The notes: a model not told the origin generated them from the letters alone. A stretch of DNA of 64,000 nucleotides from Candidatus Moraniibacteriota bacterium (GCA_026396275.1 JAPLXC010000002.1:74922-138921), one strand, 5' to 3'; shown: positions 1 through 53,283, counted from the first letter of the stretch. Translations and numbers: made by a program.

Positions 1-221
1 TCTACATCTTCGTAAATCTCTGATTGGGGATCTTTTAATCTCTGAAGCACCGGCCATTGCAATTGCTCCTCTATTTTTAGTATCTTGTCATAGGCCTTAT
101 TCCAGTCTTCCATGGTAGAAAGAGCTACAATCTGCCGGCTAGAAACAGAGAATCTCACGAGTGTCTTTCGCGGAAGATAAGTTTTTTTAAACATTTCAAG
201 GTGCTCTTCTTCGGAAATCAT
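1..221 (-). CDS. hypothetical protein (partial, runs off the window start). Translation begins MISEEEHLEMFKKTYLPRKTLVRF...
   Basis: Open frame on the minus strand. ATG at 219-221 is preceded by a strong RBS (GAGGAGGTGG, reverse complement of 223-232). This frame is not in the supplied ORF track because it runs off the edge. Confidence 0.35.
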   Translation of the reverse strand, partial: MISEEEHLEMFKKTYLPRKTLVRFSVSSRQIVALSTMEDWNKAYDKILKIEEQLQWPVLQRLKDPQSEIYEDV

Positions 222-349
222 ATTCCCACCTCCTCTGTGCGCAATAATAAGTCAAGTAAGAAAAAAAGCAAGAGTAATTCCTCTAGCTTTTTAAAAGAAG
301 TATGGCTGGCAGGGGGAATTAAATATTACACAATAATTTACATACTCTG

Positions 350-1855
350 TCAAAGCTTATACCTCCTTGCTCCCGCCAGTAACCCAGCTGCCAACCAGAA
401 CAAAATCTGCCCCGGCTGGATATCCCAGAGATAATGATCAAAAAGCATAATTACAATAAAAGCAAGAAACAAGACGCTGGCTGTCTGAGATAGTTCTCCG
501 CATAGCGTTCCACGTGGAACACTCTTGAGATGTCGCATTAATTTCCAAATAAACCATACGAATAAGCTCAGTCCGACTAATCCTAGCTCGTTTAATACTA
601 GCAGGAAAACATTATGCACCGGCTGAAATTGCCAAGTTTGGATGCCAGTGAATTCCGGGAAATTGAGAACGAATTGGCCCATTCCGACTCCCAAGAGAGG
701 ATGAGAAAGAAATGTTTCACGTGAAACATTGAGAAAGAACAATCTTTCCTCCCAGCTCTGGGTGAAGAAGGAGTTGATGTCCAGTTTTAAGATTAGAAAA
801 ACAAGGAAAACAATTGCTAGAAAAATAAACGCTCTTTCAAGCCACTTTCTTGGAATAAGATCGTCTTTTCCCTTATAAATAAGGTAAAAAAGAGCGATAA
901 ATAACCCAAGAATGGCTGACTTCGAGAAGGTTAGAATTAATGCCGCTATTTGGATAATAGTGGCTAAAAATAGTGTCATCCCGAGCTTGTCCGCCAAAGG
1001 CGGACGAGGCGAGAGATCTAACTTGATTTCACTCCGCTCAGAATGACAAATATCAATTTGTTCCACGCGGAACATTTTTCGGTACAAGAGTGTAAGAATT
1101 ATAGAAAAAATTAGGAATCCTCCCAAGATATTGGGATGTGGAAATAATCCATAAGCCCGAATGAATTTCTCCCCCCCCAGAATTATTTTGGCTACTCCTG
1201 GCAAGTACGGTGATATAATGCTTTCTTTAAGCCAAAATAATCCGACGGAGTGTTGAAGAACAAACTGCAAAATGGCCATGATTGACTGAAATAGAGCTAT
1301 AATTACTATTATCTTGAAAAAATTAAGGAGAGAGTTGGAGCTATTTTTGTTATTTATAATTGTTCCATGTGGAACAATTCTTAAGGCAATAAAAAAAAAG
1401 AGGAAATACATTTCTAGTAACTTAAAGGATCGAAATAAGGCAATGGTCTCATTTTGGGACCAAAAGATTGAGGTGAAAGACCAAATTACCAGTGCCAGAG
1501 GGATAAATAGCAATAATTGATTTAAAAATGTTCCACTTGCCCGAAATGTCCCGATATCCTTCGGGGCAGGCGGGCGTGGAACATTTATTTCAAAAGGCGA
1601 CGGGAGAGTGGAGTTTATTGACAATTTGCCATTTTTGTTGTATAATAGCAAAATTCCCCAACTTACCAAAGTAAAGAAAAGAAAAATATCGCTTAAATAA
1701 AGGTAAATTCCGGTATATTCGTTAAATTGGCCGTTAATCGGATAGAAAAGAATCACTTTCCTGACTGAAAGTGTAAGGGTAATTAAGAAACCATAAAAAA
1801 ACCAGATGTCTGGATTAGTCTTGAATTTAATCCAGATGAAGTTCAATAAATTCAT
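350..1855 (-). CDS. polytopic membrane protein, O-antigen ligase (Wzy_C)-like. It carries multiple in-frame palindromic insertions.
   Basis: 501 aa with roughly 10-12 hydrophobic segments in an O-antigen-ligase-like arrangement. Contains five GTTCCACGTGGAAC-type palindromes and one 75-bp TGTCATCC...GAATGACA element, all read through in frame. Confidence 0.45.
   Translation of the reverse strand: MNLLNFIWIKFKTNPDIWFFYGFLITLTLSVRKVILFYPINGQFNEYTGIYLYLSDIFLFFTLVSWGILLLYNKNGKLSINSTLPSPFEINVPRPPAPKDIGTFRASGTFLNQLLLFIPLALVIWSFTSIFWSQNETIALFRSFKLLEMYFLFFFIALRIVPHGTIINNKNSSNSLLNFFKIIVIIALFQSIMAILQFVLQHSVGLFWLKESIISPYLPGVAKIILGGEKFIRAYGLFPHPNILGGFLIFSIILTLLYRKMFRVEQIDICHSERSEIKLDLSPRPPLADKLGMTLFLATIIQIAALILTFSKSAILGLFIALFYLIYKGKDDLIPRKWLERAFIFLAIVFLVFLILKLDINSFFTQSWEERLFFLNVSRETFLSHPLLGVGMGQFVLNFPEFTGIQTWQFQPVHNVFLLVLNELGLVGLSLFVWFIWKLMRHLKSVPRGTLCGELSQTASVLFLAFIVIMLFDHYLWDIQPGQILFWLAAGLLAGARRYKL
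974..1048. mobile_element. MITE-like element (TGTCATYC...GRATGACA family), copy 1, inserted in-frame (75 bp = 25 codons) in the membrane protein gene
   Basis: Terminal inverted repeat tgtcatcc/gaatgaca. Internal hairpin ccgccaaaggcgg. Translated through as ...SERSEIKLDLSPRPPLADKLGMT.... Confidence 0.55.
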
Positions 1856-1979
1856 ATCACCGTTAATTATACTATATACTGGACGATATTGCCTAAAGGT
1901 GTATTATATTAATTAAAAGAAAAAATGTTTGCACGAATGTTTTTGACAGTTATTTAAAAAATAAAAAAGGAGGTGAAAA

Positions 1980-3083
1980 ATGTCATCTATTTTGGCACAA
2001 GCACAACCACTTAAAATTGGCGATATAATCGCCAATTTGCCAATAATCCAGGGTGGGATGGGTGTGGGAATTTCCTTGTCTGGTCTGGCATCGGCAGTTG
2101 CCAGTGAAGGAGGAATTGGCGTTATTGCTACCCCCGCGATCGGAATGAATGAACCTGATTTTTTCAAAAATTTCCTGGAAGCCAATGTCAGGGCGTTAAG
2201 AAAAGAGATTAGAAAAGCCAGAGAATTATCACAAGGAATCCTCGGTGTCAATATCATGGTGGCATTGACTAATTTCGCCGATCTGGTGAGAACCTCCATT
2301 GAGGAGGGTATAGATGTTATCTTTTCCGGAGCCGGGTTGCCGCTAAATCTGCCTGAATTTTTGCAGAACACTGCGAAAACAAAGCTGGTACCGATTGTTT
2401 CCTCTGGTAGGGCAATTGATATTATCATAAGAAGATGGTCAGAAAGATACAAATATCTTCCCGATGCTGTTGTTGTGGAGGGACCGCTGGCAGGAGGACA
2501 TCTCGGTTTCAAAGAACAGATGATTAGCAACTCTGAATATTCATTAGAAAAACTTGTCCCGGAAGTGATTCTGGCGATAAAGCCATATGAAAAAAAATAT
2601 GGCAGGCCTATTCCAGTAATCGCCGCCGGAGGAATCTACACAGGAGAAGATATTTATAGATTTTTCCAGTTGGGAGCTTCGGGTGTGCAGATGGCAACGC
2701 GATTTGTCACTACGCATGAATGTGATGCAAATATCAGGTTTAAAGAGGCGTATATAAATGCCAAGGAAAACGATATAACAATTATCAAAAGCCCCGTAGG
2801 GATGCCAGGAAGAGCAATTAGAAATAAATTTCTTGATGATGTCAGTGCGGGCAAAAAGAAACCTTTCAGATGCTTTTTCCACTGCCTGAAAACATGCGAA
2901 TTAGAAAAAAGTCCCTATTGCATTTCCTATGCTCTAATAAGTGCGAAAAAAGGAAACCTTAACCATGGTTTCGCCTTCTGCGGATCAAATGCATGGAAAG
3001 CGGAAAAAATTATCTCTGTTAAGGAAACATTTGAGACTCTCAAGGAAGAGTATCGAAATGCTTCCAGCGGAGAAGATTTGTAA
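1980..3083 (+). CDS. NAD(P)H-dependent flavin oxidoreductase, nitronate monooxygenase / FabK (enoyl-ACP reductase II) family
   Basis: N-terminal motif IIQGGMGVGIS and the overall TIM-barrel NMO-family pattern. Strong RBS AAGGAGGTG upstream. Confidence 0.65.
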   Translation: MSSILAQAQPLKIGDIIANLPIIQGGMGVGISLSGLASAVASEGGIGVIATPAIGMNEPDFFKNFLEANVRALRKEIRKARELSQGILGVNIMVALTNFADLVRTSIEEGIDVIFSGAGLPLNLPEFLQNTAKTKLVPIVSSGRAIDIIIRRWSERYKYLPDAVVVEGPLAGGHLGFKEQMISNSEYSLEKLVPEVILAIKPYEKKYGRPIPVIAAGGIYTGEDIYRFFQLGASGVQMATRFVTTHECDANIRFKEAYINAKENDITIIKSPVGMPGRAIRNKFLDDVSAGKKKPFRCFFHCLKTCELEKSPYCISYALISAKKGNLNHGFAFCGSNAWKAEKIISVKETFETLKEEYRNASSGEDL

Positions 3084-3092
3084 GTCGCTTGA

Positions 3093-3134
3093 CCGGGGTG
3101 CGCTGTGAGTTCAATAGTGCAACCCGGTTTTTTT
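3093..3134 (+). terminator. Rho-independent terminator after the NMO-family gene
   Basis: Hairpin ccggggtgcgc...gtgcaacccgg followed by TTTTTTT. Confidence 0.6.
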
Positions 3135-3190
3135 ATTGACTAACTTTTTTCGCTTGGTATGATATTATGAATTCAGAGAATAAGTTAAAG

Positions 3191-3263
3191 GGGCCGTTAG
3201 CTCAATTGGTAGAGCGCTTCCATGGCATGGAAGAGGCAACCGGTTCGAACCCGGTACGGTCCA
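3191..3263 (+). tRNA. tRNA-Ala(GGC)
   Basis: Cloverleaf folds by hand. Acceptor gggccgt/acggtcc has the G3:U70 Ala identity pair. Anticodon loop aTGGCat. T-loop ttcgaac. No encoded CCA. Confidence 0.8.
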
Positions 3264-3273
3264 CTCTTAAAAT

Positions 3274-3816
3274 ATGCTTAAAAAAATTTTATTACTTTCC
3301 GGCTGGATGACCGATTTAAAATTATACAGAAAATATGATGATCTTACTATCCAAGTAAGTAAATTAAGCAGCGAATCTGAAAAAATCGATTATATAATTG
3401 GTCTAAGTTTGGGTGCTCTGATAGCCTTGCGTGAATGGAATAAAAGTGGGAAGCTGATTTTGATTAATCCGCCTCTTCCAAAAAGAAATATTTTCGTATG
3501 GCTTGGTAAATGGATTAAATTTATTTTGTCAGAAGGTTTATTTTTAGAGCGCCAGAAGTTTACAAAAAATCCATTCAGGTTTATTACTGAAATTATAAAA
3601 TGTGTAAAACTGCTCTCTGTGGATTTTTCAAAGGTTTTAGATAATATACCAGAAGACAAGTTAGTTGTGATTAAAGGCAAAAATGATAATTATTTCTGTG
3701 ATCAGAAAGCCGTAGAATTTATGCGATCAAAAAATATTACGGTTATTGAAGTTGAAAACGCTGGACACAATTGGTGTGAAGAAATTGAAAAAACTGTAAA
3801 TAAATTAATAAATTAA
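3274..3816 (+). CDS. small alpha/beta-hydrolase-fold serine hydrolase (putative esterase)
   Basis: GxSxG nucleophile motif (GLSLG) and a C-terminal His (NAGHNW). About 180 aa. Confidence 0.45.
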   Translation: MLKKILLLSGWMTDLKLYRKYDDLTIQVSKLSSESEKIDYIIGLSLGALIALREWNKSGKLILINPPLPKRNIFVWLGKWIKFILSEGLFLERQKFTKNPFRFITEIIKCVKLLSVDFSKVLDNIPEDKLVVIKGKNDNYFCDQKAVEFMRSKNITVIEVENAGHNWCEEIEKTVNKLIN

Positions 3817-3823
3817 AACATTA

Positions 3824-3898
3824 GCCCCCATAGTTCAACGGATAGAACAGTCCCGTCCTAAGGGATAAATGCGTGTTCAATTCATGCTGGGGGCACCA
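3824..3898 (+). tRNA. tRNA-Arg(CCT), CCA encoded
   Basis: Acceptor gccccca/tgggggc. Anticodon loop gtCCTaa. T-arm gcgtg-ttcaatt-catgc. 3' end ACCA. Confidence 0.8.
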
Positions 3899-3907
3899 AA
3901 TAATTCT

Positions 3908-5464
3908 GTGATTAAAAAAATTCCAAAAGAAGTAATTGAAGTTTTGCGGAAACTTGAAGCCGCAGATTTTGAGGCCTATATCGTAGGCGGGTGCGTGCGG
4001 GATTTGATCGTGGAAAAGGAACCGAAAGATTGGGATGTAACGACTAATGCGAAACCAGAAGAAATTTTAAAATCATTTCCGGACAGTTTTTATGAAAATG
4101 AATTTGGAACAGTCGGCGTAAAAGTAAAGCCGTTTATTAAGAATGGAAACCCAGATCGCGATCATGATGTTATTGAAGTTACTACATACCGCATTGAATC
4201 AAAATATTCCGACAAGCGCCGGCCGGACAAAATCAGGTTTGCCAAGACGCTAAAGGAAGATTTGAGTCGAAGGGACTTTACGATTAACGCGATAGCGTTA
4301 AAAATAAAAAATCAAAATGCAAAAATCAAAAATACTGATTATGAAATTATCGATCCCTATGACGGGAAGAGTGATTTAAAAAATAGAACAATCCGCACGG
4401 TGGGCGATCCTAATGAGCGGTTTGACGAGGACGCGTTGCGGATGATGCGAGCAGTAAGGTTCCACGCGGAACTGGGCTATAAGATAGAAGAAAAAACCCT
4501 AAAAGCGATCAAGAAAAACGCCAAATATCTCAAACACATTACGCTGGAAAGAATTAAAGACGAACTGGCAAGAATTATTTTGTCTGATAGTCCTGCCCGC
4601 AATGCTGCGCCCGTCAGAAGCGTTGCATCTGCTACAGGCTGGCATAGCGTTGCAGGCGGGCCTGCTGAGGGAATTGACATGCTTCATCAAACAGGATTAT
4701 TAAATTATATTATTCCAGAACTTGAAAAAGGCGTGGGGATAAAACAAAATCGCCATCATATCTATACCATATATAAACACAGTATTTTATCCTTAAAACA
4801 TTGCCCTTCTGCCAAACTTGAAGTGCGATTGGCGGCGCTTCTTCACGATATTTCCAAGCCTCAAACCAAAAGAGGCGAAGGCGAATACGCAACTTTTTAT
4901 AACCATGATCATGTTGGAGCCAAAGTAGCCGAAAAAATTCTTACACGCCTGCGTTTTTCTAATGAAGTTATTCAAAAAGTAAAACTTCTCGTGGATAATC
5001 ACATGTTTTACTATAATCCCGATGAGGTCGGAGTAAGCTCTGTTAGAAAATTAATTCAAAAAGTTGGCTTGGAAAACATGAAAGATCTGATTGATCTTAG
5101 AATTTCCGACAGATTGGGCTCGGGCGTGCCGAAAGCCAAGCCGTATAAGCTTCGCCACTTGGAATATATGATTGAGAAAGTTTCTCAGGACGCCATTTCA
5201 GTGAAAATGTTGAAAATCAACGGCAATGATTTGATGAAAGAATTAAAACTAAAACCCGGACCGAAAATCGGAGCGATTCTTGACGTTTTGCTTTCTGAAG
5301 TGATTGAGGACGCTTCTAAAAATAATCGGGATTATTTGCTGTCCCGTGCCAAAGAGCTGGATAAAAAGGACTTGGAAAAGTTAAGAAACATGGCAAAGGT
5401 TAAGATCGAAGAGAAAAAAGAAGAGGAAGACAAGGAAATAAAAAATAAGTATTGGGTTAAATAG
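3908..5464 (+). CDS. cca: CCA-adding tRNA nucleotidyltransferase (poly(A) polymerase family) with HD domain
   Basis: Nucleotidyltransferase motif YIVGGCVRDLI; RAVRFHAELGY helix; HD motif LLHDISKP. The track ORF starts at 3869 inside tRNA-Arg, so the start is moved to an in-frame GTG at 3908; the start is uncertain. Contains a 69-bp GC-rich in-frame insert at 4593-4661. Confidence 0.8.
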   Translation: MIKKIPKEVIEVLRKLEAADFEAYIVGGCVRDLIVEKEPKDWDVTTNAKPEEILKSFPDSFYENEFGTVGVKVKPFIKNGNPDRDHDVIEVTTYRIESKYSDKRRPDKIRFAKTLKEDLSRRDFTINAIALKIKNQNAKIKNTDYEIIDPYDGKSDLKNRTIRTVGDPNERFDEDALRMMRAVRFHAELGYKIEEKTLKAIKKNAKYLKHITLERIKDELARIILSDSPARNAAPVRSVASATGWHSVAGGPAEGIDMLHQTGLLNYIIPELEKGVGIKQNRHHIYTIYKHSILSLKHCPSAKLEVRLAALLHDISKPQTKRGEGEYATFYNHDHVGAKVAEKILTRLRFSNEVIQKVKLLVDNHMFYYNPDEVGVSSVRKLIQKVGLENMKDLIDLRISDRLGSGVPKAKPYKLRHLEYMIEKVSQDAISVKMLKINGNDLMKELKLKPGPKIGAILDVLLSEVIEDASKNNRDYLLSRAKELDKKDLEKLRNMAKVKIEEKKEEEDKEIKNKYWVK

Positions 5465-5502
5465 TCGTGTAAATCGCAAAATTAAAACCTGTAAATAGTC
5501 GA

Positions 5503-5576
5503 CGGGGCATAGTATACCGGTAGTACGTACGATTCGGGTTCGTAAAGACTGGGTTCGATTCCCAGTGCCCCGACCA
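5503..5576 (+). tRNA. tRNA-Pro(CGG), CCA encoded
   Basis: Acceptor cggggca/tgccccg. Anticodon arm tacga-ttCGGgt-tcgta. T-arm ctggg-ttcgatt-cccag. ACCA at the end. Confidence 0.8.
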
Positions 5577-5625
5577 AATGCTTACAAAACAAATTATCCC
5601 TTTTACTATTTTAAAGTGAAAATTG

Positions 5626-5915
5626 AAATTAAAAATATTAGAGGCAATCCCGCGGATCTCTTGCGGCGGGCAGGATATATTTTTCAGAGCCGTAAAGAGG
5701 ATGAAATGGGCTTCGTCCGTCCATTGTCTTCTTCGGGCTACCCGAGGTTTCATATCTTCACCCGCGTTGTCGGAGGCAATCTGATAATCAATATTCACCT
5801 GGACCAGAAAAAAGAAACCTATGGAGAAGCAAAGCGCCATCACGGAGAATATGAGAGCGCGATTATTAAAGAGGAAGCAGAGCGAATTGCTTCGGTATTA
5901 AGACCGGTAGAATAA
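5626..5915 (+). CDS. hypothetical small protein
   Basis: The track ORF 5565..5915 overlaps tRNA-Pro, so the start was moved to an in-frame GTG at 5626. No family recognised. Confidence 0.3.
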
Positions 5916-5943
5916 AATTAGAATTTAGCGAGCTTTTAAATAA

Positions 5944-7662
5944 ATGATTAAGTTAATAAATTACATTGAGGGACTCTCTTTTTGGAAAGTAGCCGTTATT
6001 CTCGCTACTGTCGGTCTGATACTTTACATTAATACTTTCACCAACCAGCTTTTCTGGGATGATTATGACAGCATTGTCAACAATGCCTATGTCAAAAGCT
6101 GGAATTATCTTCCCAACTACTTTTCAGAAAATCTTACCGCCGGATCGGGAATCCGCGACAATTACTGGCGTCCGCTTCTCCTTTTTTCTTTTTCGCTGGA
6201 TTACAAAATAGGAAAACTTACTCCCCTTTTTTATCATCTTCAGAGTTTATTCTGGCACATTCTCTCCGCTGTTTTGGCGTATTGGCTGATTTTTAAATTG
6301 TTTAAAAACAAACTGGCTTCACTTATCGCCGCGCTGATTTTTTTAGCCCATCCTCTGCAGGCGGAGGCAGTTACTTATGTCGCCGGCCGGGCCGATCCGA
6401 TGCATGCGGCTCTGATGCTGGCGGCATTCTTGTTTTTTTACAAGTATGTTGCCGAAAAAGCAGCTTTCAAGTTTTATTTCTGGTCAATTGTCTTTTTCTC
6501 GGCTGCGCTCCTAACTAAAGAACGGGCAATAGTACTGCCGGCTCTTCTGGTTTTGTATTACGTCACTCTTTATCCTGAACCTCTTCTTCAAAATTGGAAG
6601 AAAAAAATTATCAACATTTTACCCTACACCGGAATTGCCGTCCTCTATCTTATTTTAAGAATGACAGTTTTGCACTTCGCGGATGTTTTTGATCTGGGAC
6701 AGCCCAACAATATCGGAGCGCAGAATTGGTACGAAAAATTTCTGGCTTACTGCCAGGGCATAGCAGTGTATGCCGGACTTCTCTTTTGGCCGGCTAAACT
6801 TTATATGGAAAAATCAATCAGTATTCCGCCATCTTTTTGGAACTCTTACGTGATATCCGGTTTAATTATTGTAATTAGCTCATTGGCGGGAATAGTTTAT
6901 TCTTTCAGAAGGAAAAAAATTTTTGCTTTTGGAATGCTTTGGTTTTGGGTCGCTCTTTCTCCCTCTTTTCACATTTATCCCATTCAGGGGCTTCTTTACG
7001 AACACTGGCTGTATTTTCCCATGATTGGATTACTGGCCGTATTCGTGTTGCCGCTGGCGACAATGATCCGGTATACTGAATTTAATTCCTTTCGGATATT
7101 TCTGGTGGCACTACTTACTGTCGGAATCCTGGCTTTAGGTATTCGAACAATTGTCCGCAACCGCGACTGGAACAATCCGATAAGGTTTTACGAAAAAAAT
7201 GTTTCGCTGGGCGGATTGTCTGCCCGGGTATACACTAACTTAGGCATGGCTTACGATGGCGCGGGAAGGCACGAAGAGGCAATCGGAACTTATCAAAAAG
7301 CCATTGCACTGGACAATCGGCTGTTTCAGCCCTGGTACGACACGGGCAACGCTTATTGGGATATGCAAAAATTGGATGAAGCGCTAGCGGCTTATCAAAA
7401 GTCCGTTGAACTCAATCCTTATTTTTTGCCGGCTTATTATAATTTGGCGGGAATTTATGCCGGCTGTAATGATTTCGACAATGCTGCTGGAGTTTTGCAG
7501 AAGGCACTAGCGGTTGATTCCAATAAATCAAGGACATATTATAATTTAGGAATTGTTTACTATCAAAAAGGAGATAAGACAGAGGCAAAAAAATATTTTA
7601 CTGAGGCCTTACGGCTGGAGCCGAGTAATGTTGATTTATTGAATCTGGTTAATGGCTTATAG
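5944..7662 (+). CDS. membrane glycosyltransferase family 39 (PMT/ArnT-like) N-terminal domain fused to C-terminal TPR repeats
   Basis: About 11 TM segments in the N-terminal 400 aa, then three or four TPR units (AYDGAGRHEEAIGTYQKAIALD...; AYQKSVELNP...; YYNLGIVYYQKGDKTEAKKYFTEALRLEP). Confidence 0.5.
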   Translation: MIKLINYIEGLSFWKVAVILATVGLILYINTFTNQLFWDDYDSIVNNAYVKSWNYLPNYFSENLTAGSGIRDNYWRPLLLFSFSLDYKIGKLTPLFYHLQSLFWHILSAVLAYWLIFKLFKNKLASLIAALIFLAHPLQAEAVTYVAGRADPMHAALMLAAFLFFYKYVAEKAAFKFYFWSIVFFSAALLTKERAIVLPALLVLYYVTLYPEPLLQNWKKKIINILPYTGIAVLYLILRMTVLHFADVFDLGQPNNIGAQNWYEKFLAYCQGIAVYAGLLFWPAKLYMEKSISIPPSFWNSYVISGLIIVISSLAGIVYSFRRKKIFAFGMLWFWVALSPSFHIYPIQGLLYEHWLYFPMIGLLAVFVLPLATMIRYTEFNSFRIFLVALLTVGILALGIRTIVRNRDWNNPIRFYEKNVSLGGLSARVYTNLGMAYDGAGRHEEAIGTYQKAIALDNRLFQPWYDTGNAYWDMQKLDEALAAYQKSVELNPYFLPAYYNLAGIYAGCNDFDNAAGVLQKALAVDSNKSRTYYNLGIVYYQKGDKTEAKKYFTEALRLEPSNVDLLNLVNGL

Positions 7663-7681
7663 GCCGATGTGGTGAAACCCG

Positions 7682-7713
7682 CGCACCAGTCCGCCAGCTG
7701 GCGGACTGGTGCG
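7682..7713 (+). terminator. perfect 14-bp-stem hairpin directly after the TPR gene (terminator-like, no T-run)
   Basis: cgcaccagtccgcc-agct-ggcggactggtgcg. Confidence 0.4.
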
Positions 7714-7748
7714 GAGCAAGTTGGCAGATTTAACCCATTATAGCTGGT

Positions 7749-7831
7749 GGGCGAGTGGTGGAATGGTATACACGTAAGGTTTAGGACCTTATGGGAGTAA
7801 TCCCTTGTGGGTTCAAATCCCACCTCGCCCA
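7749..7831 (+). tRNA. tRNA-Leu(TAG)
   Basis: Acceptor gggcgag/ctcgccc. Anticodon arm taagg-ttTAGga-cctta. Long variable arm tgggagtaatccctt. T-arm gtggg-ttcaaat-cccac. Confidence 0.8.
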
Positions 7832-7994
7832 CAAAATAAAAGACGCATCCCGCCTAGGCGGGACTCCCGCAAGAAATTGAGAGTTCGAATCCCTGCCCGT
7901 TGATTTTTAGCGGGGTCTCCCAAGGCACGAAATAAGCTGGACTAATGCAAAAATTAAGTTATAATAATGAAATCAATATTTAAAAGAAATAAAA

Positions 7995-8387
7995 ATGGCA
8001 AACGATCAGGAAATTTTGGAAAAATATGAAAAAGAAAATCCCTGGGGCATGCTTACCAGCATTGATCTTAAAGAATGCAATCCGGAGATTATTCGCAACG
8101 CCGAAAAAATTAAGGACTTTGTCGCCAAACTCTGTGATTTAATCGGTATGAAACGCTTCGGAGAAATACAAGTGGTTCATTTCGGTGAGAACCAGCGGGT
8201 GGCCGGATTTTCAATGACGCAGCTGATTGAGACATCACTTATTTCCGGTCATTTTGCCAACCAGTCCAACGCGGTGTATCTGGATATTTTCAGCTGCGGG
8301 AAATATCCGCCTTACAAATCAGCGGAGTTTTGCAAGGATTTTTTTCAAGCCAAAAGCGCCAAAGTGACTGTTATTTTTCGCCACTAA
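7995..8387 (+). CDS. speH: S-adenosylmethionine decarboxylase proenzyme, archaeal/Bacillus type
   Basis: Processing-site region FSMTQLIETSLISGHF and YLDIFSCG, which match the SpeH pyruvoyl-enzyme pattern. 130 aa. Confidence 0.7.
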   Translation: MANDQEILEKYEKENPWGMLTSIDLKECNPEIIRNAEKIKDFVAKLCDLIGMKRFGEIQVVHFGENQRVAGFSMTQLIETSLISGHFANQSNAVYLDIFSCGKYPPYKSAEFCKDFFQAKSAKVTVIFRH

Positions 8388-8395
8388 AAACAGCA

Positions 8396-9361
8396 ATGAC
8401 TGTAAAATATATTGCCGTCACAAAAGAAAACAGCGGAGAGCGCCTTGATAAATTCCTAAAGCGGGAATTTTTTTCGTATTCTCGGGGAGAAATTATCAGA
8501 AATATCAGAGCCGGAAATATTCTGGTGAACAGCAAAAAAGTAAAGTCCAGCTATGTTTTGAAAGAAGGAGACATTATTAAATCAAAAATTAAAAATCAAA
8601 AATCAAAATTAATTTCCAATTCAAATATAAAATTCAGCGTTATTTATAAGAATGAAGACATTATTATGATCAATAAGCCAGCAGGGTTGAGTGTCCACCC
8701 CGTAAAATCAAATGAAAATGATACTTTAGCAAACGGATTGCTGGCAAAATTTACAGAAATAAAAAATATCCATGATGACTCTAAAAATGCGCATCTGCGC
8801 CCCGGAATTATTCACCGGCTAGATAAAGACACTTCGGGCGTAATGGTTATTGCGAGAAATATGAAAGCGTATGAAGGGTTAAAGAAAATTTTTAAAGAGC
8901 GTAAAGTCGATAAGAAATATTTAGCAATCGTCCGCGGAATCTTAAAGGATAAAAAAGGAGTTATCAAAAAACCGATTGCTCGAGCAAAAACTTATAGAAA
9001 GCAGGTAATTGCCGGAAGGAAAACTAAAACGAAAATTCGCGAAGCTATAACTGAATACAAAGTACTAAAAGAGTTTGATAATTACTCTTTACTGGAAGTT
9101 ACTCCCAAAACCGGCCGGATGCACCAAATTCGGGTGCATTTGTTTTCCATCGGCCATCCGATTGTGGGAGATAAGTTATATAAATTAAAAAAAGCTAAGC
9201 TTTTCCCGGCAAAGCTTAGCTTTAAAATGACTAGGCAACTGCTTCACGCCCAGCAGCTCATCTTTGACTTGGGCGGAAAAAAATATAAATTCAGCGCCAG
9301 GCCACCGAAGGATTTTGCGGATTTTCTGGGTTTTCTTGACGAAGGGAAAATAAAAAGCTAG
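8396..9361 (+). CDS. rluD: RluA-family 23S rRNA pseudouridine synthase (RluD-like) with N-terminal S4 domain
   Basis: Catalytic motif HRLDKDTSGVMVIA. S4-like N-terminus. The track start at 8330 overlaps speH, so ATG 8396 is preferred. Contains an AT-repeat low-complexity insert (KIKNQKSKLISNSNIK). Confidence 0.75.
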   Translation: MTVKYIAVTKENSGERLDKFLKREFFSYSRGEIIRNIRAGNILVNSKKVKSSYVLKEGDIIKSKIKNQKSKLISNSNIKFSVIYKNEDIIMINKPAGLSVHPVKSNENDTLANGLLAKFTEIKNIHDDSKNAHLRPGIIHRLDKDTSGVMVIARNMKAYEGLKKIFKERKVDKKYLAIVRGILKDKKGVIKKPIARAKTYRKQVIAGRKTKTKIREAITEYKVLKEFDNYSLLEVTPKTGRMHQIRVHLFSIGHPIVGDKLYKLKKAKLFPAKLSFKMTRQLLHAQQLIFDLGGKKYKFSARPPKDFADFLGFLDEGKIKS

Positions 9362-9432
9362 TATGAAAAAACTGGACAAAAAGGCAAAAAACTTTGTTTT
9401 TAATTTAAGTAAAAATTAACTATAATTACCAT

Positions 9433-9876
9433 ATGGATAAGAAAATAATTGAATTTAATCAAGTTTCCCGTCAAAAGAAGATGCCGGTTCTGCGAGCGGG
9501 AGATATTATTAAAGTGCATCGTAAAATAATTGAAGGAGGGAAAGAAAGAGTCCAGGTTTTTGAAGGAATCATTATCTCGGTTAAAGGAAAGCAAAGTTCC
9601 TCGCCAATGATAAGGGTGCGCAAAGTTTCAGAAGGCGTGGGAGTAGAATTGATCATTCCTGTCTATTCTCCGCAAGTCAAAAAAATTGAAGTGGTAAGGC
9701 AAGCAAAAGTGCGAAGGGCAAAATTGTATTATCTGCGGGAGCGGTCAGCCAAGTCGCTCAGAATGAAATACAAGGAATTGTCAGAGTTTGCAAAGGGCGA
9801 GGAAGAAGAGAAGAAACCGGACAATACTGAAAAATCAGAAGCCAAACTTCCTTTAGAGAAGCACAAAGAAAAATAG
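9433..9876 (+). CDS. rplS: 50S ribosomal protein L19
   Basis: L19 signature RAGDIIKVHRKIIEGGKERVQVFEGIIISV... plus a Lys/Glu-rich C-terminal tail. Confidence 0.85.
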   Translation: MDKKIIEFNQVSRQKKMPVLRAGDIIKVHRKIIEGGKERVQVFEGIIISVKGKQSSSPMIRVRKVSEGVGVELIIPVYSPQVKKIEVVRQAKVRRAKLYYLRERSAKSLRMKYKELSEFAKGEEEEKKPDNTEKSEAKLPLEKHKEK

Positions 9877-10034
9877 TTTTTAGCGCCCAAGACGCAAAGC
9901 GGCATATTAACTGTTCACTTTACTAAGATTTGCGGATGTGGTGCCTGCCTGCTTGTCTCGCTAAAGCTATGGAGAAGCGGGCGGTCAGGGAACCCGGTAT
10001 ATTTACCCCGCATCAATTTCTGTGTTCTGAAGAA

Positions 10035-10118
10035 AGGGGACGTGGCGGAATTGGTATACGCGATAGGTTGAGGACCTATGCTCGCAAGAGCGTGAGGGTT
10101 CAAGTCCCTCCGTCCCCA
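10035..10118 (+). tRNA. tRNA-Leu(GAG)
   Basis: Acceptor ggggacg/cgtcccc. Anticodon arm atagg-ttGAGga-cctat. Long variable arm gctcgcaagagcgt. T-arm gaggg-ttcaagt-ccctc. Confidence 0.8.
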
Positions 10119-10282
10119 CACAGGAATTGGTGCGGGGCGCATATGCCCCAGTACTAAGTCCAGGGTGGACTAGTACGGGGTAAACTTGAGGTGCATGTGG
10201 GAGTAATCTCCCTAGAGGTTTTTACCCCGTATTTGGAGCGAAGCGACATAGTTCGGGGCAAATCCTCTCATCCGCACTTGAA

Positions 10283-10470
10283 GGATCCTTAGCTCAGTTG
10301 GTAGAGCGCTTCGCTTATTCACCCCGCACCAAAATTAAGGGCAATTAGCTCAGTTGGCTAGAGCGCTTCGTTTACACCGAAGATGTCGTAGGTTCGAGTC
10401 CTACATTGCCCACTAGAATTTGGTGCGGGGCAAACCGAAGATGTCGTAGGTTCGAGTCCTACAGGATCCA
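10283..10470 (+). pseudogene. interrupted tRNA-like gene 'X' (Val-like body). Its 5' half (10283-10320) and 3' half (10436-10470) have complementary acceptor strands ggatcct/aggatcc and are separated by a 115-nt insert that contains a complete tRNA-Val.
   Basis: 5' half: acceptor, D-arm gctcagttggtagagc, stem cttcg, loop cttattc. 3' half: cgaag, atgtc, T-arm gtagg-ttcgagt-cctac, aggatcc. The insert is bounded by the inverted repeat ccccgcaccaaaatt / aatttggtgcgggg. Confidence 0.55.
10339..10412 (+). tRNA. tRNA-Val(TAC), nested inside the split tRNA-like gene X
   Basis: Acceptor gggcaat/attgccc. Anticodon arm cttcg-ttTACac-cgaag. T-arm gtagg-ttcgagt-cctac. Confidence 0.85.
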
Positions 10471-10493
10471 CTAATAATGTTTTTTAAAATTTT

Positions 10494-10565
10494 GCCAGGC
10501 TAGCTCAGTGGTAGAGCGAAGGACTGAAAATCCTTGCGTCCCCAGTTCGATTCTGGGGCCTGGCA
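10494..10565 (+). tRNA. tRNA-Phe(GAA)
   Basis: Acceptor gccaggc/gcctggc. Anticodon arm aagga-ctGAAaa-tcctt. T-arm cccag-ttcgatt-ctggg. Confidence 0.85.
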
Positions 10566-10736
10566 CAATAGGCAAAATTTAGTATGGGGCAAGCTGAAAA
10601 CTTATGTCGGCAGTTTTTACCCCGTCGAATGATTGGGGCGATCCTGTCCCCAAGCACAACGCCAAGCATTCCACTATAACTAATATGATTAAGGAATGCT
10701 AATTACAGTAATGTTACTACTAAGTATTAGTAGTTA

Positions 10737-10809
10737 GGGTCCGTAGCTCAGCGGTTAGAGCGGCCGGCTCATAACCGGTTGGTCGCAAGTTCGAATCTTG
10801 CCGGACCCA
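10737..10809 (+). tRNA. tRNA-Met(CAT), elongator or tRNA-Ile2 (lysidine) type. Not initiator-like (G1:C72 pair).
   Basis: Acceptor gggtccg/cggaccc. Anticodon arm gccgg-ctCATaa-ccggt. T-arm gcaag-ttcgaat-cttgc. Confidence 0.75.
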
Positions 10810-10855
10810 CATAAAAAATTCAAAATTTAAAAATCAAAATGCAAAACTTAAGAAA

Positions 10856-10926
10856 GCGGAATTAGTATAGTGGTAGTACGCCACCTTGCCAAGGTGATGG
10901 CGCCGGTTCGATTCCGGTATTCCGCT
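10856..10926 (+). tRNA. tRNA-Gly(GCC)
   Basis: Acceptor gcggaat/attccgc. Anticodon loop ttGCCaa. T-arm gccgg-ttcgatt-ccggt. Confidence 0.8.
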
Positions 10927-11022
10927 CAATTTTAGGTTCGCTGCAGCACCGCTGAAGGGTGCTAAGCGCCCGGCATTCTTTAGCAGTACCGGGCGATTCC
11001 GCTCACTCGCTCTAAAAGAAAA

Positions 11023-11053
11023 ATTCCTCAAATGGTGAGGAATTTTTCTTTTT
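11023..11053 (+). terminator. Rho-independent terminator
   Basis: aattcctca-aatgg-tgaggaatt followed by TTTCTTTTT. Confidence 0.65.
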
Positions 11054-11100
11054 GTGTTAAAATGAGTCAAAACGTAACTTAGTGCGGTTAAACCTTTAAT

Positions 11101-11175
11101 TGCGACCGTAGTACAGTGGCAGTATACGACCTTCCCAAGGTTGAGACGTGGGTTCCCTGCCTGCCATTGCTCCAA
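11101..11175 (+). pseudogene. degenerate tRNA-Gly(CCC)-like copy
   Basis: Has a Gly-like D-arm gtacagtggcagtat and anticodon arm cgacc-ttCCCaa-ggttg, but the T-arm (gtgggttccctgcctg) and the acceptor 3' strand are degenerate. It aligns to the 3' half of the neighbouring split Gly gene. Confidence 0.4.
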
Positions 11176-11177
11176 AT

Positions 11178-11425
11178 GCGGATGTAGTATAGTGGTAGTG
11201 CCCCAGTACTAAACTTGCCTTACGACAAATTAATACGGGGCAGGCATAACCTTCCCAAGCCCCGCACTAAATCTGCACCGCACTTTGTGCGAGAATAGTA
11301 TAGTGGCATTACACTTGCTTCCCAAGCAAGAAACGCGGGTTCAATTCCCGTTTCTCGCTCCGTTATTTGTGCAGATTTTAGTGCGGGGCAAGGTTGAAGC
11401 GTGGGTTCGATTCCCATCATCCGCT
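11178..11425 (+). pseudogene. interrupted tRNA-Gly(CCC)-like gene. The 5' part (11178-11259) and 3' part (11389-11425) have complementary acceptor strands gcggatg/catccgc. It hosts a complete tRNA-Gly(CCC) and also carries an extra 45-nt hairpin insert after the D-arm.
   Basis: 5' part: gcggatg-ta-gtatagtggtagtg ... taacc-ttCCCaa-g. 3' part: caaggttg-aagc-gtggg-ttcgatt-cccat-catccgc-t. The insert is bounded by ccccgcactaaatctgcac / gtgcagattttagtgcgggg, with a 4-bp direct repeat caag at both junctions. Confidence 0.55.
11289..11359 (+). tRNA. tRNA-Gly(CCC), nested inside the split Gly(CCC)-like gene
   Basis: Acceptor gcgagaa/ttctcgc. Anticodon arm cttgc-ttCCCaa-gcaag. T-arm gcggg-ttcaatt-cccgt. 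Confidence 0.85.
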
Positions 11426-11531
11426 CAGGCATTTGGCAGGCGGGGATTCTCATATCCCGCTCAAAGATTCTCTGAAAAATTGGCTTATTTCAACCCCGAA
11501 TATTTTCCTAGAATAAGCCAAATTTAGACCA

Positions 11532-11556
11532 AAATCCCTTATTTAAGGGATTTTTT
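11532..11556. terminator. symmetric hairpin with T-runs (bidirectional terminator-like)
   Basis: aaatccctta-ttt-aagggattt, followed by TTTTTT. Confidence 0.55.
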
Positions 11557-11713
11557 GGTTTTCCAAGCTTGACTTTCTGCCTGCAATCTGCTAGCATGGT
11601 AGGTTGGCATAATATGCCTTTTTTGTTTGGGCTATTTGCCAGCCCCCTAAACCACAGAAGGTTCAGGGCAGGGCAGTTTCTGAAAAACGTGCCTTAACAA
11701 TTAATGATAGCTT

Positions 11714-12277
11714 ATGGAACTTATTAGTATAATCGCCACTCTGCCGATTGCTGGCGGGCTGACTTTCGGAACGCCAACCATAGTAGAGGAACCAATCAAT
11801 ACTAATACAAAAATAGAATTTGTGGTTGAGAAAAATATACAACTTAATAACGGTTTTGTTGAAAGCAAAAATAATATTCCATATAACTCCGAGAGCTATA
11901 AACCAGTGAAAGGCGAAGAAGAAATTAAAAGAGAAGAAAAACTTTCCAAGTGGGAAGAAAAGCAAGCTCATCTGAAAAGCAATCTTCCTAAAGAAAAATT
12001 TACTGGAAACTTCTCGGCTTATACTGCCGCCGCTGACGAGTGTGGAAAATCGGACGGGATTACCGCGAGCGGCCTTAAGGTTAAAGGAAAAAGAACCCTT
12101 GCCTGTCCTCCGCAGTATCCTTTCGGAACAAAAGTTAAAATTGAAGGATACGGAACTTATGTCTGCGAAGATCGCGGGGGAGCGATCAAGAGTAACCATT
12201 TTGACATTTATATGGAAACTAAATCTCAAGCTTTCGCTTTTGGAAGAAGGCATCTCGAAGCGGAAGTGGTGGATTAA
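11714..12277 (+). CDS. 3D-domain (MltA/RlpA-like double-psi beta-barrel) cell-wall-binding protein
   Basis: C-terminal region ...GLKVKGKRTLACPPQYPFGTKVKIEGYGTYVCEDRGGAIKSNHFDIYMET..., which is typical of the 3D domain. Confidence 0.5.
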   Translation: MELISIIATLPIAGGLTFGTPTIVEEPINTNTKIEFVVEKNIQLNNGFVESKNNIPYNSESYKPVKGEEEIKREEKLSKWEEKQAHLKSNLPKEKFTGNFSAYTAAADECGKSDGITASGLKVKGKRTLACPPQYPFGTKVKIEGYGTYVCEDRGGAIKSNHFDIYMETKSQAFAFGRRHLEAEVVD

Positions 12278-12287
12278 TCCATCCAAA

Positions 12288-12348
12288 TGTCATTCCGGGC
12301 TTGACCCGGAATCTAGAAAATTGGATTCCCGCCTTCGCGGGAATGACA
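12288..12348. mobile_element. MITE-like element (TGTCATYC...GRATGACA family), copy 2, intergenic
   Basis: tgtcattccgggcttgacccggaatc...cccgccttcgcgggaatgaca. It has the terminal inverted repeat and two internal hairpins. Confidence 0.55.
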
Positions 12349-12437
12349 TACTAACAAGCAAAAACACCCAAGGATTTTCCGAGGGTGTTTTTGTATTACC
12401 TTGTTAATTTTGGCTTGTTGGTATAAATTTGTTATAA

Positions 12438-12508
12438 GGTCCGGTGGCCGAGAAGTTAGGCAGAGGTCTGCAAAACCTCTTACAGCAGTGCAAATCTGCT
12501 CCGGACCT
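12438..12508 (+). tRNA. tRNA-Cys(GCA)
   Basis: Acceptor ggtccgg/ccggacc with U73 discriminator (the Cys identity element). Anticodon arm gaggt-ctGCAaa-acctc. T-arm agcag-tgcaaat-ctgct. Confidence 0.75.
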
Positions 12509-12533
12509 CAAAATTATAGTATGGTTTGTCCAA

Positions 12534-12621
12534 GCCCGGGTGATGGAATCGGCAGACATGAGGGACTTAAAATCCCTTGGATGAATAATCCGTGCGAGTT
12601 CGAGTCTCGCCCCGGGCACCA
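12534..12621 (+). tRNA. tRNA-Leu(TAA), CCA encoded
   Basis: Acceptor gcccggg/cccgggc. Anticodon arm aggga-ctTAAaa-tccct. Long variable arm. T-arm gcgag-ttcgagt-ctcgc. ACCA at the end. Confidence 0.8.
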
Positions 12622-21997: not shown

Positions 21998-22609
21998 ATG
22001 AATTTTAAAAAATATTATTTAATAGCGACTGCCAGTGTTATTCTCGCCTTAATTTTTCCTTTTGTTTCTTTAGCCCAATGCAAGGCGGAAGGAAATGTAA
22101 TAGAGTTTTGCAATCCTCTCCGGTTCAACACGGTGCAGGAAGTTTTAGCGAGCTTAATGGCTTCCCTTCAAGGAGTAATTGTAGTCATCTCTATTATTTT
22201 CATAATTATCGGGGCGGTGTTTTACATTACTTCGGGCGGGAGCGAAGATCGGATAAAAACCGCCAAGAAAGCCATTCTTGCCTCAATGATCGGACTAGCT
22301 ATTGGAATTGCGGCACCGACATTCCTAAAGGAAATATCAAGCATCTTAGGATGGACAAATCAGCCACCGGAGTTACAACAGGCGAAAAGCATTGCCGAAA
22401 TAGCTCTTAGTGTCCTGAATTTTCTTCTGGGAATTGTCGGGGCTCTGGCGCTCATTATGATGATAATTGGGGGAATTATGTATCTCACCGCAGCGGGAAA
22501 CGAGGACCGAATTGATGCAGGCAAAAAGATTTTCAAGTTTTCCCTAATTGGAATTGCCGTGGCGCTGGCATCGCTGGTTATTATCAGACAAATTGCCTTG
22601 TTTTTTTAA
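21998..22609 (+). CDS. T4SS-type pilin (TrbC/VirB2-like) with two tandem pilin domains
   Basis: Signal peptide, then two copies of the hydrophobic-YxTxGG(S/N)EDRI(x)AKK-hydrophobic module (FYITSGGSEDRIKTAKKAILASMIGLAIGI and MYLTAAGNEDRIDAGKKIFKFSLIGIAVAL). Confidence 0.6.
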   Translation: MNFKKYYLIATASVILALIFPFVSLAQCKAEGNVIEFCNPLRFNTVQEVLASLMASLQGVIVVISIIFIIIGAVFYITSGGSEDRIKTAKKAILASMIGLAIGIAAPTFLKEISSILGWTNQPPELQQAKSIAEIALSVLNFLLGIVGALALIMMIIGGIMYLTAAGNEDRIDAGKKIFKFSLIGIAVALASLVIIRQIALFF

Positions 22610-22641
22610 TCAATATTTTTTAACGCAAAGAATTTAGACCA

Positions 22642-23097
22642 ATGCTATTCAATGTTCCCCAATTTATTGATGTGGAAGACAAAGTGGCCGGTCCCTTCAC
22701 GGCCAAGCAGCTTCTTTGGATGTTTGGAATGGGCGCGGTACTGCTAGTGCTCTGGAACATACTTGAAAAACCGGCTTTTTTTGTTTCCGCTGTTCCGATA
22801 GTTGCTCTTTTTATGGCTTTGGCTTTTTATCGCCCCTATAACCAGCCACTAATAAGATTTATTCTTTTTTCTTTACTGTTCCTTTTCCGCCCCAAGGTGT
22901 ATGTGTGGAAAAGAATTCCTCATAAAATAGCATCTCAGGCAGGAAAGAAAAAAACGCCTGCTACGATGGAAAAAGAAAAAAAGAAAATGCTCAATCCGGA
23001 AAATATAGAAGCGTTAGCGCGAGTGCTGGACAGCGAGGGCAGGGAACGGAATGAAAAAATTATGGAGATAATAAAGAGAAATCAAAAATCAAAATGA
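22642..23097 (+). CDS. VirB3/PrgI-like small membrane protein of the T4SS-like system
   Basis: 151 aa with two adjacent TM helices after an N-terminal ...FIDVEDKVAGPFTAKQLLWM... segment. Sits immediately upstream of the VirB4 ORFs. Confidence 0.4.
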   Translation: MLFNVPQFIDVEDKVAGPFTAKQLLWMFGMGAVLLVLWNILEKPAFFVSAVPIVALFMALAFYRPYNQPLIRFILFSLLFLFRPKVYVWKRIPHKIASQAGKKKTPATMEKEKKKMLNPENIEALARVLDSEGRERNEKIMEIIKRNQKSK

Positions 23098-23185
23098 AAA
23101 AATCAAGATTCTAAATCAAAATTAAAAAATTTTTAAGTTCTAAGGTCTCTTAATTTCAATTTTTTATCTTTTTGCATTTTGATAT

Positions 23186-23890: not shown

Positions 23891-23894
23891 AATT

Positions 23895-52977: not shown

Positions 52978-53283
52978 TTTGCCTTAAATCAAAAATCAAA
53001 TATCAAAAATCAAAATTAAGGTATCGCTTTGCGATAGATATTTATTATGGAAAAGTCGTGAGCGTAGCGCCTGCCTGTCGGCAGACAGGAACACCAAAAT
53101 TTTGAATTTTACACTTTGATTTTTAATTTTTTACGTCGTACAACCCAATTGTCACTTTCTAGTGCATTCTATCACAGTCCTGTTCTTAGAGAAAGAGAGA
53201 AAAAAGTCCCGCGCGGGCACTGTATCACCTTTTGCCCTACCTAAGCCGCCAAACAAAAGAAGAAAAACTTGTAAATTTCTCGG

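Follow-up and report, generated by a model that had tools for sequence, protein, structure and literature searches.

What is a palindrome doing five times over inside one membrane-protein gene, and what are the GC-rich hairpins that accompany it? The question is raised by a stretch of 64,000 nucleotides (nt) from a Candidatus Moraniibacteriota bacterium (GCA_026396275.1 JAPLXC010000002.1:74922-138921), which we call the window. Near its start, a gene for a membrane protein carries repeated copies of the palindrome GTTCCACGTGGAAC, one of them interrupted by a short GC-rich hairpin, and the nearby cca gene carries a longer insert with the same ends. An earlier note on this DNA had taken both the palindromes and the hairpins for families of tiny mobile elements. 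We find that the palindrome has the sequence of the chromosomal partition site parS, and we consider it likely that the locus is a parS array lying in a single Wzy_C-family gene, into which GC-rich mini-hairpins have inserted at parS dyads and at other sites.

The palindrome matches parS and is repeated in a Wzy_C-family gene

The whole 64 kb was scanned for GTTCCACGTGGAAC, allowing up to two mismatches. Matches were found at 507-520 (no mismatch), 714-727 (two mismatches), and 1060-1073, 1362-1375 and 4459-4472 (one each), and nowhere else in the window; 100 shuffles gave an expectation of 0.10 matches and not one case with five or more. A further copy, GTTCCAC-[39 nt]-GTGGAAC at 1530-1582, is split by an insert and was the single match of its kind in the window (shuffle expectation 0.00). 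The open reading frame (ORF) at 350..1855 holds the copies at 507, 714, 1060 and 1362 together with the split one, and the remaining match lies in cca. This is the arrangement described in the earlier note, apart from the second copy, which it had placed at 713-726. The note had also read four copies in a VPRGT-type frame. This holds for four copies when the split one is counted among them (VPRGT, VSRET, VPHGT and VPR[PPAPKDIGTFRAS]GT), but at 1060 the reading frame is a different one, giving MFRVEQ.

parS is a centromere-like site, the recognition of which by a ParB dimer loads ParB clamps (and, in other bacteria, SMC as well) near the replication origin. Listed parS sequences include the general consensus TGTTNCACGTGAAACA, that of Pseudomonas aeruginosa, TGTTCCACGTGGAACA, and that of Myxococcus xanthus, TGTTCCACGTGGAACG (PMC7022226). 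The palindromic 16-mer TGTTCCACGTGGAACA, of which TGTTTCACGTGAAACA is the window variant, matches this canonical chromosomal parS, and judged by this match ParB would be expected to bind it. Compared with the 16-bp inverted repeat tGTTNCACGTGAAACa, the site at 713-728 is exact and the other window sites have one mismatch each. The features are collected in Table 1.

Table 1. Positions of the parS sites, the hairpin inserts and the genes that carry them, counted from the first letter of the window (aa, amino acids)
Feature	Position	Strand	Description
Wzy_C / O-antigen-ligase-family gene	350..1855	(-)	501 aa, polytopic membrane protein; carries the parS array; ORF call and Pfam
parS site 1	506..521	n/a	cGTTCCACGTGGAACa, 15/16 matches to TGTTCCACGTGGAACA; VPRGT aa 446-450, loop; slot filled in 72/95 homologs
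parS site 2	713..728	n/a	TGTTTCACGTGAAACA, exact universal parS consensus; VSRET aa 377-381; LNVSRGT or similar in 66/95 homologs
parS site 3	1059..1074	n/a	TGTTCCACGCGGAACA, 1 mismatch; MFRVEQ aa 261-266; slot filled in 49/95 homologs
parS site 4	1361..1376	n/a	TGTTCCATGTGGAACA, 1 mismatch; VPHGT aa 161-165, loop pLDDT <50; slot filled in 65/95 homologs
parS site 5, dyad-split	1529..1583	n/a	TGTTCCAC (1529-1536) + 39-nt insert + GTGGAACA (1576-1583); low-confidence loop aa 78-106
39-nt mini-hairpin	1537..1575	n/a	TTGCCCGAAATGTCCCGATATCCTTCGGGGCAGGCGGGC, 13 codons, GC-rich; F3-type termini CYTGCCCGMAATG ... GCAGGCGGG; boundary ambiguous by 1 nt
cca (CCA-adding tRNA nucleotidyltransferase)	3908..5464	(+)	Pfam PolyA_pol, PolyA_pol_RNAbd, HD, tRNA_NucTran2_2
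Near-parS in cca	4459..4472	n/a	GTTCCACGCGGAAC, within RFHAEL; equivocal: weak site or by-product of conserved protein motif
In-frame cca hairpin insert	4592..4660	n/a	69 nt, 23 codons; F3-type (CCTGCCCGCAATGC...GCAGGCGGG) with second segment nested in loop

The host protein, with about 10 hydrophobic helices, belongs to the Wzy_C / O-antigen ligase family (Pfam PF04932, E = 7e-13, above the curated cut-off); its sequence is 100% identical to that of a protein from one Candidatus Moranbacteria metagenome-assembled genome. An AlphaFold2 model, built on 96 homologs, was confident, with a predicted local distance difference test score (pLDDT) of 84 and a predicted template modelling score (pTM) of 0.87. 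For four of the five window sites, the parS peptide (aa 92-109, 161-165, 261-266 and 446-450) is placed in a loop of low confidence between the helices. The remaining one, VSRET at site 2, stands at the end of a well-modelled helix (360-384) and is the counterpart of a family-wide LNVSRGT; the correspondence with loops raised in the earlier note is thus seen at every site but this one.

The sites are conserved as DNA and concentrated in one gene

We compared the DNA of 80 species-level Moranbacteria genomes, in which the proteins are 30-46% identical to the window protein (tblastn), and counted the parS sites in them. The orthologous gene contained 634 sites (4.6 per kb), compared with 20 in 1.13 Mb of flanking DNA (0.018 per kb), a density about 260 times that of the flanks. 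Metagenome contigs, taken as an independent set, had 152 sites inside the gene and 16 outside. These counts indicate that the 16-mer is confined to one gene and not dispersed. The number of copies per gene ranged from 0 to 18, with up to 18 sites in less than 2 kb, and the ORF was intact in 76 of the 80 genomes. An assembly artefact could be dismissed, as the array was reproduced in more than 100 independent assemblies.

The in-gene sites were exactly TGTTCCACGTGGAACA in 532 of 634 cases; 15 of the 16 positions were each conserved at more than 96%, and conserved A-rich and T-rich flanks extended the unit to about 22 nt. All three reading frames were used, in the proportion 270:157:200, which argues that the conserved object is the DNA 16-mer and not a peptide; a protein-motif repeat was rejected on this ground. 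At the protein level, translation of AATGTTCCACGTGGAACATT in its three frames gives NVPRGT, MFHVEH/Q and CSTWN. Nearly all homologs contain these peptides, some at conserved positions and others within variable loop expansions. The 120 homologous proteins contained a mean of 5.5 parS-derived peptides each, and among 95 homologs each of the five window slots was filled by such a peptide in 40-76% of them.

The match in cca is less clear. The near-palindrome lacks the flanking T/A of the 16-mer, overlaps a conserved protein motif, RAxRFHAEL, and approaches parS only in the nearest relatives; for these reasons it may be coincidental. The sixth palindrome of the earlier note is therefore present as a match, yet its standing is equivocal, and we rejected it as a firm sixth parS on account of the protein motif and its restriction to the nearest relatives.

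Arrays of the same site lie beside dnaA and cca in relatives

Two relatives, located via cca, carry parS arrays at the same syntenic place in non-coding DNA. In L137 (2345-3050), seven perfect TGTTTCACGTGAAACA sites occupy an AT-rich non-coding kilobase directly upstream of dnaA; the gene, identified with Pfam, adjoins one side of the array, and the opposite side has a tRNA and, about 3 kb away, cca. In L144 (4772-5470), five perfect parS sites are found in AT-rich non-coding DNA immediately upstream of cca, with TGTGGATAA DnaA-box sequences nearby. At another locus, L037, dnaA is 1.8 kb from the Wzy_C-family gene. GC skew averaged over the loci flips at the gene, from -0.11 to +0.05, and the density of exact DnaA boxes in the gene (0.264 per kb) is 6-fold that of the flanks (0.042 per kb). 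The clustering of parS, the adjacency of dnaA and the hints from skew fit an origin-proximal centromere array, for which the window itself is a candidate only.

In six loci (L047, L068, L071, L078, L081 and L023), two perfect DnaA boxes (TTATCCACA) stand about 50 nt apart in the first variable loop of the gene, some 250-315 nt in. The Wzy_C gene of the window has no exact DnaA box. Genes for TrmB-family helix-turn-helix regulators recur near the cca / parS-array locus (L001 658-1395 and 3178-3897; L137 4955-5926) and one is present at 29499-30308 of the window.

GC-rich mini-hairpins interrupt parS sites at their dyads

The split copy was seen as the earlier note had described it, with a 39-nt GC-rich hairpin at 1537-1575. 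As the boundary of the insert at split parS sites is ambiguous by 1-2 nt, an insertion at the exact centre agrees with the data; removal of the insert restores an intact parS. Folded as single-stranded DNA, the whole of split site 5 forms one hairpin of -20.3 kcal/mol (z = -6.5). The pairing of TGCCCGMAATG with GCAGGCGGGC had been offered as the mark of a family shared with the 69-nt insert in cca, and exact matches to these termini in the window were indeed restricted to the two inserts. Both are of the F3 type described below, and a 69-nt F3 form with the same ends as the cca insert was found in another gene of L009 (21315-21383), so the shared termini define a real family.

Within the orthologous genes, 50 split parS sites were found in 33 genomes, each with a GC-rich hairpin of about 20-45 nt at the dyad, in both orientations. 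The inserts could be sorted into family F1 (CCTGCCTG..CAGGCAGG, 20-21 nt), F2 (a 30-nt type), F3 (CCTGCCCGCAATGC...GCAGGCGGG, 36 nt) and F4 (CCCGCCTCGACTCG...CGAGGCGGG, 39-45 nt), and at least five unrelated hairpin families have each reached a parS dyad. The elements ranged from 21 to 69 nt, and hairpin folds had z values from -2.3 to -4.3. As expected of units resembling miniature transposable elements with inverted repeats (MITEs) or repetitive extragenic palindromes (REPs), they are short repeated hairpins with many copies in the lineage, and F1-F4 occur in many genomes. The families were found outside parS too; copies in ORFs are mostly multiples of 3 in length, and odd lengths are mainly non-coding.

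Presence and absence at orthologous sites, with precise boundaries, was observed both at parS slots and in cca. When the gene was aligned in six related genomes (58-77% nt identity), the same parS was intact in some and precisely split in others, in a patchy manner. One slot held a 30-nt element in L071 and in L078, in opposite orientations; another held F2 in L070 and F1 in L071 and was empty in L078 and L081. Nesting at loop apices was seen in L167, in L009 and in the cca gene of the window. Taken with the shared termini, these observations bear out the proposal of the earlier note that the GC-rich inserts are a mobile, nestable family tolerated in frame.

Hairpins were also encountered in other structures. 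In L167 (327-380), a second hairpin is nested inside the loop of an F3 element. In L070 (9517-9594), and also in L046, L071, L078 and L024, a duplicated copy resembling tRNA-Arg(CCT) lies beside the intact tRNA and has a mini-hairpin in its T-loop (GGAATC^GAACC); ARAGORN makes no call on these hairpin-bearing copies. In L010 (2737-2771), a mini-hairpin sits in a T-arm-like hairpin that is followed by an acceptor-like ...CCGACCA. With hairpins in parS dyads, a T-loop, a T-arm-like hairpin and the loop of another hairpin, insertion at the apex of a stem-loop appears as the common theme. Nine uncultivated viral contigs (IMG/VR, L162-L175; 48-60% GC) also bore the 36-nt F3 hairpin, at up to five copies in 33 kb; there it may be a terminator or may serve as a vehicle of its spread. 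No split parS was found on the viral contigs, and a Pfam search of the ORFs of one hairpin-rich contig gave nothing useful.

A third insert type, of about 73 nt, occupies window 975-1047 in a loop of the same Wzy_C-family gene (aa 270-295, CHSE...GMT), with inverted termini GTCATCCCGAGC / GCTCAGAATGAC enclosing a CCGCCAAAGGCGGAC hairpin. One homolog (P0007) has the CHSE..GMT insert type too, and an arm-like match is also present at window 9756-9767.

The nested insert in cca is absent from most orthologs

In most related loci, the Wzy_C gene has cca as its divergent neighbour on the upstream side. In the window its longest ORF (3869-5464) overlaps tRNA-Arg(CCT) at 3824-3898, and the real start is probably the GTG at 3908, after the tRNA. 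The insert of about 23 residues claimed for this gene was confirmed as 23 codons, lying one nucleotide upstream of where it had been placed. It interrupts the PolyA_pol_RNAbd match at profile position 42 of 64, and the alignment of CCA enzymes that the earlier note had envisaged showed it to be missing from 124 of 126 orthologs. The insert is degenerate (fold z = -1.1), and a CCTGC repeat found there is accounted for by the element's own terminus. The other occupied cca, that of L010/L083 (74% identical CCA enzyme), is interrupted at precisely this codon boundary by a 39-nt F4 element. A metagenome scan for close relatives of this cca returned none above 79% identity.

A possible further case in the window is its UvrD/PcrA gene (33930-36164), in which a 13-residue insertion, QPASPASGQLTTA, at 34170-34208 (core 34173-34193) was seen relative to the L144 ortholog, the single one compared. 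It contains an F1/F4-like hairpin, CCTGCCTCGCCGGCAAGCGGG, and is probably another in-frame hairpin insert.

A model for the array and its inserts

We propose that a chromosomal parS array of Moranbacteria is embedded in the coding sequence of a conserved Wzy_C-family gene beside cca. The sites would fill a handful of conserved slots, supplemented by lineage-specific expansions, and, in whatever frame each is translated, would mostly form disordered loops linking transmembrane helices, so that the gene may act as protein and centromere at once. The mini-hairpins would behave as non-autonomous insertion elements entering the apex of DNA stem-loops. Their chief target would be the parS dyad (CAC^GTG, within 1 nt), with T-loop-like hairpins and the loops of other copies as further targets, the latter giving rise to nested forms; a few ordinary coding sites, that in cca among them, would be hit as well. 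Within ORFs, only copies with a length that is a multiple of 3 and in permissive loops would survive. The 39-nt insert is predicted to have inactivated one of the five parS sites of the window, through a loss of ParB binding that we infer for split sites in general, and the 69-nt cca insert would be a nested, decayed copy of the same terminus family. Insertion might proceed through an enzyme acting on single-stranded hairpins or through break repair at hairpin tips.

A more far-reaching version of this model can be put forward only tentatively. It holds that essentially the entire parS array sits in the loops of one membrane-protein gene, a 'protein-coding centromere' that may couple the position of the centromere to co-translational membrane insertion, and that mini-hairpins of a class not described before home by structure to parS dyads and stem-loop apices, a selfish erosion of parS for which the array would compensate by expanding.

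Evidence against the model and alternative explanations

Several observations weigh against one part or another of the model. No ParB homolog was found in the window, nor within about 10 kb of the gene in some 160 loci (of up to about 22 kb each), by a GERRxRA regular expression, tblastn and phmmer; the query was Bacillus subtilis Spo0J, validated by Pfam as ParB. None of the four intact window sites is a perfect TGTTCCACGTGGAACA. The shift in GC skew is confounded with divergent gene orientation, adjacency of dnaA is limited to 2 of about 160 loci, and the DnaA-box analysis is weak, a scan with one mismatch having given no clear oriC beside the gene. As to the hairpins, no target-site duplication, as looked for in a MITE- or REP-like element, is visible at the inserts; window ORFs of at least 150 aa include no transposase and only one XerC/D-like tyrosine recombinase (51979-52977). 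Some insertion sites, in cca and in lysine-rich coding stretches, are not obvious hairpins, and the spread among parS copies could partly reflect gene conversion rather than transposition.

The last point can be taken further. We considered the possibility that the hairpins were not transposed at all, but reached parS on a few occasions and were then copied among its many identical sites by gene conversion or template switching, or that they are filler DNA left by break repair at extruded palindrome tips. Near-identical copies are frequent within one gene (three in L002, two identical in L071), and the parS flanks offer about 10 nt of homology on each side, the palindrome allowing either orientation; the missing target-site duplication and transposase would also be explained. 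Yet unrelated families have each arrived at a parS dyad, and the same families occupy non-parS sites that share no flanks with it (cca, T-loop-like hairpins, lysine-rich coding stretches, viral contigs), so that a primary mechanism of insertion is still needed. We consider this explanation unlikely. A view in which the palindrome itself is the mobile or dispersed repeat, colonizing the ORF as cyanobacterial small dispersed repeats might, is quite improbable. It would account for copy numbers and positions that vary among orthologs, for loop expansions made of several copies and for a unit extended by its flanks, but a dispersed element should occur throughout the genome. Instead, the palindrome is some 260-fold concentrated in one gene and does not occur in the other 59 kb of the window; it has the sequence of canonical parS and recurs as the same extended unit in the non-coding arrays beside dnaA and cca of relatives. 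The corresponding claim of the earlier note, which made GTTCCACGTGGAAC a tiny mobile palindrome family, was given up for these reasons.

The remaining alternatives concern the function of the palindrome. Another DNA-binding protein, or a site-specific recombinase serving for instance the phase-variable inversion of a surface-glycan gene, might use the sites in place of ParB, a suggestion to which the failure to find ParB in the window and the loci around the gene, the recurrent TrmB-family regulators and the tyrosine recombinase encoded in the window lend something. It is nevertheless very improbable, given that the sites match parS exactly and form arrays like known centromere clusters, one of them abutting dnaA, and that variants of the gene with an inversion or a deletion were not encountered; the ORF is nearly always intact, and the reverse strand is without an ORF. 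Finally, VPRGT, MFHVEH and the like could be functional motifs of the membrane-protein family, with the DNA palindrome a by-product. LNVSRGT, which about 70% of homologs share and which stands where a helix modelled with confidence ends, would suit this idea, and the recurrence of the VPRGT peptide among homologs is what the earlier note had named as speaking for a structural motif. The peptide does recur; the translation of the same 16-mer in three frames shows, however, that it is the DNA that is conserved. The peptides lie mostly in disordered loops of variable length, synonymous positions are conserved along with the rest of the site, and non-coding arrays exist, all of which makes a protein motif hardly credible. 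We retain the reading of a parS array in a Wzy_C-family gene, invaded by mini-hairpins.

Comparison with known systems

In B. subtilis, a parS lies within the spo0J coding sequence and encodes NVPRET. With the chromosomal parS sites of B. subtilis, P. aeruginosa, M. xanthus, C. crescentus and S. coelicolor, the present array shares the 16-bp palindrome, the clustering of multiple copies and, in at least one relative, adjacency to dnaA. It differs from them in that the whole local array is found in one conserved membrane-protein gene across a bacterial class, is read in three frames, shapes protein loops and has no parAB adjacent; ParB binding is here a prediction from the site. A literature search for ParB or parS in Patescibacteria, the Candidate Phyla Radiation (CPR), Moranbacteria and Parcubacteria turned up nothing relevant, and we found no account of a parS array within one conserved coding gene or of hairpin elements homing to parS.

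Rickettsia palindromic elements (RPEs) and Coxiella MITEs are palindromes that lie in frame in protein genes, where they are tolerated as extra surface peptide segments. RPEs measure about 100-150 bp, and we know of no functional DNA site that serves as their target; the mini-hairpins, in contrast, are 21-69 nt long and strongly target a centromere palindrome. Elhai et al. (2008, Genome Res 18:1484) reportedly described cyanobacterial small dispersed repeats of about 21-27 nt that are palindromic, nested in one another and present inside genes. They belong to another phylum, have other sequences and are not known to be linked to parS or to stem-loop apices. Tobes and Pareja reportedly observed in 2006 that insertion sequences (IS) of the IS110/IS1111 type target the centre of REP palindromes. 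Those elements are full-size and encode a transposase, whereas the unit inserted here is a hairpin of a few dozen bases.

The REP / REPIN sequences themselves are mobilized by RAYT, an IS200-like Y1 transposase. They are imperfect palindromes, short and rich in GC, which as single-stranded DNA fold into hairpins; their subfamilies are genome-specific, and these non-autonomous elements insert in or beside copies already present (PMC3116915). The mini-hairpins resemble them in being short, GC-rich and non-autonomous, in forming subfamilies and in inserting into existing copies. REPs, though, are extragenic, have a conserved GTAG head and flank the RAYT gene, whereas the mini-hairpins stand in frame in ORFs, at parS dyads and loop apices, and neither a RAYT nor an IS200 gene was seen in the window.

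Were the model correct, it would give a first view of the cis-acting elements of chromosome segregation in the CPR, the members of which cannot be grown in pure culture, and a clear instance of one stretch of DNA under a double constraint, as protein and as centromere array. The hairpins suggest mobile DNA that senses DNA structure, the tip of a palindrome, over sequence and preys on an essential but redundant host site, and the locus could serve as a compact natural system for the study of centromere array turnover. In predicted CPR proteins, NVPRGT, MFHVEH and CSTWN would become recognizable as translated parS, and GC-rich inserts of 7-23 residues as hairpin insertions rather than functional domains.

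Other features of the window

In an Rfam search of window 1-12000, tRNAs were the only matches, and the inserts gave none. Of the 14 tRNA genes in the window, 12 are crowded into the region 3191-12621. An F1-like hairpin, CCTGCCTGTCGGCAGACAGG, lies at 53070-53089, about 90 nt upstream of the XerC/D-like gene, and may be a coincidence or a terminator. Genes resembling those of a type IV secretion system (T4SS) are found at 21998-25706, 36742-49200 and 60336-60818, among them two for T4SS pilin-like proteins, one for PrgI and one for a TraG/VirB4-like ATPase. A single ORF of 4152 aa stands out by its GC content, about 50% compared with about 40% in its surroundings.

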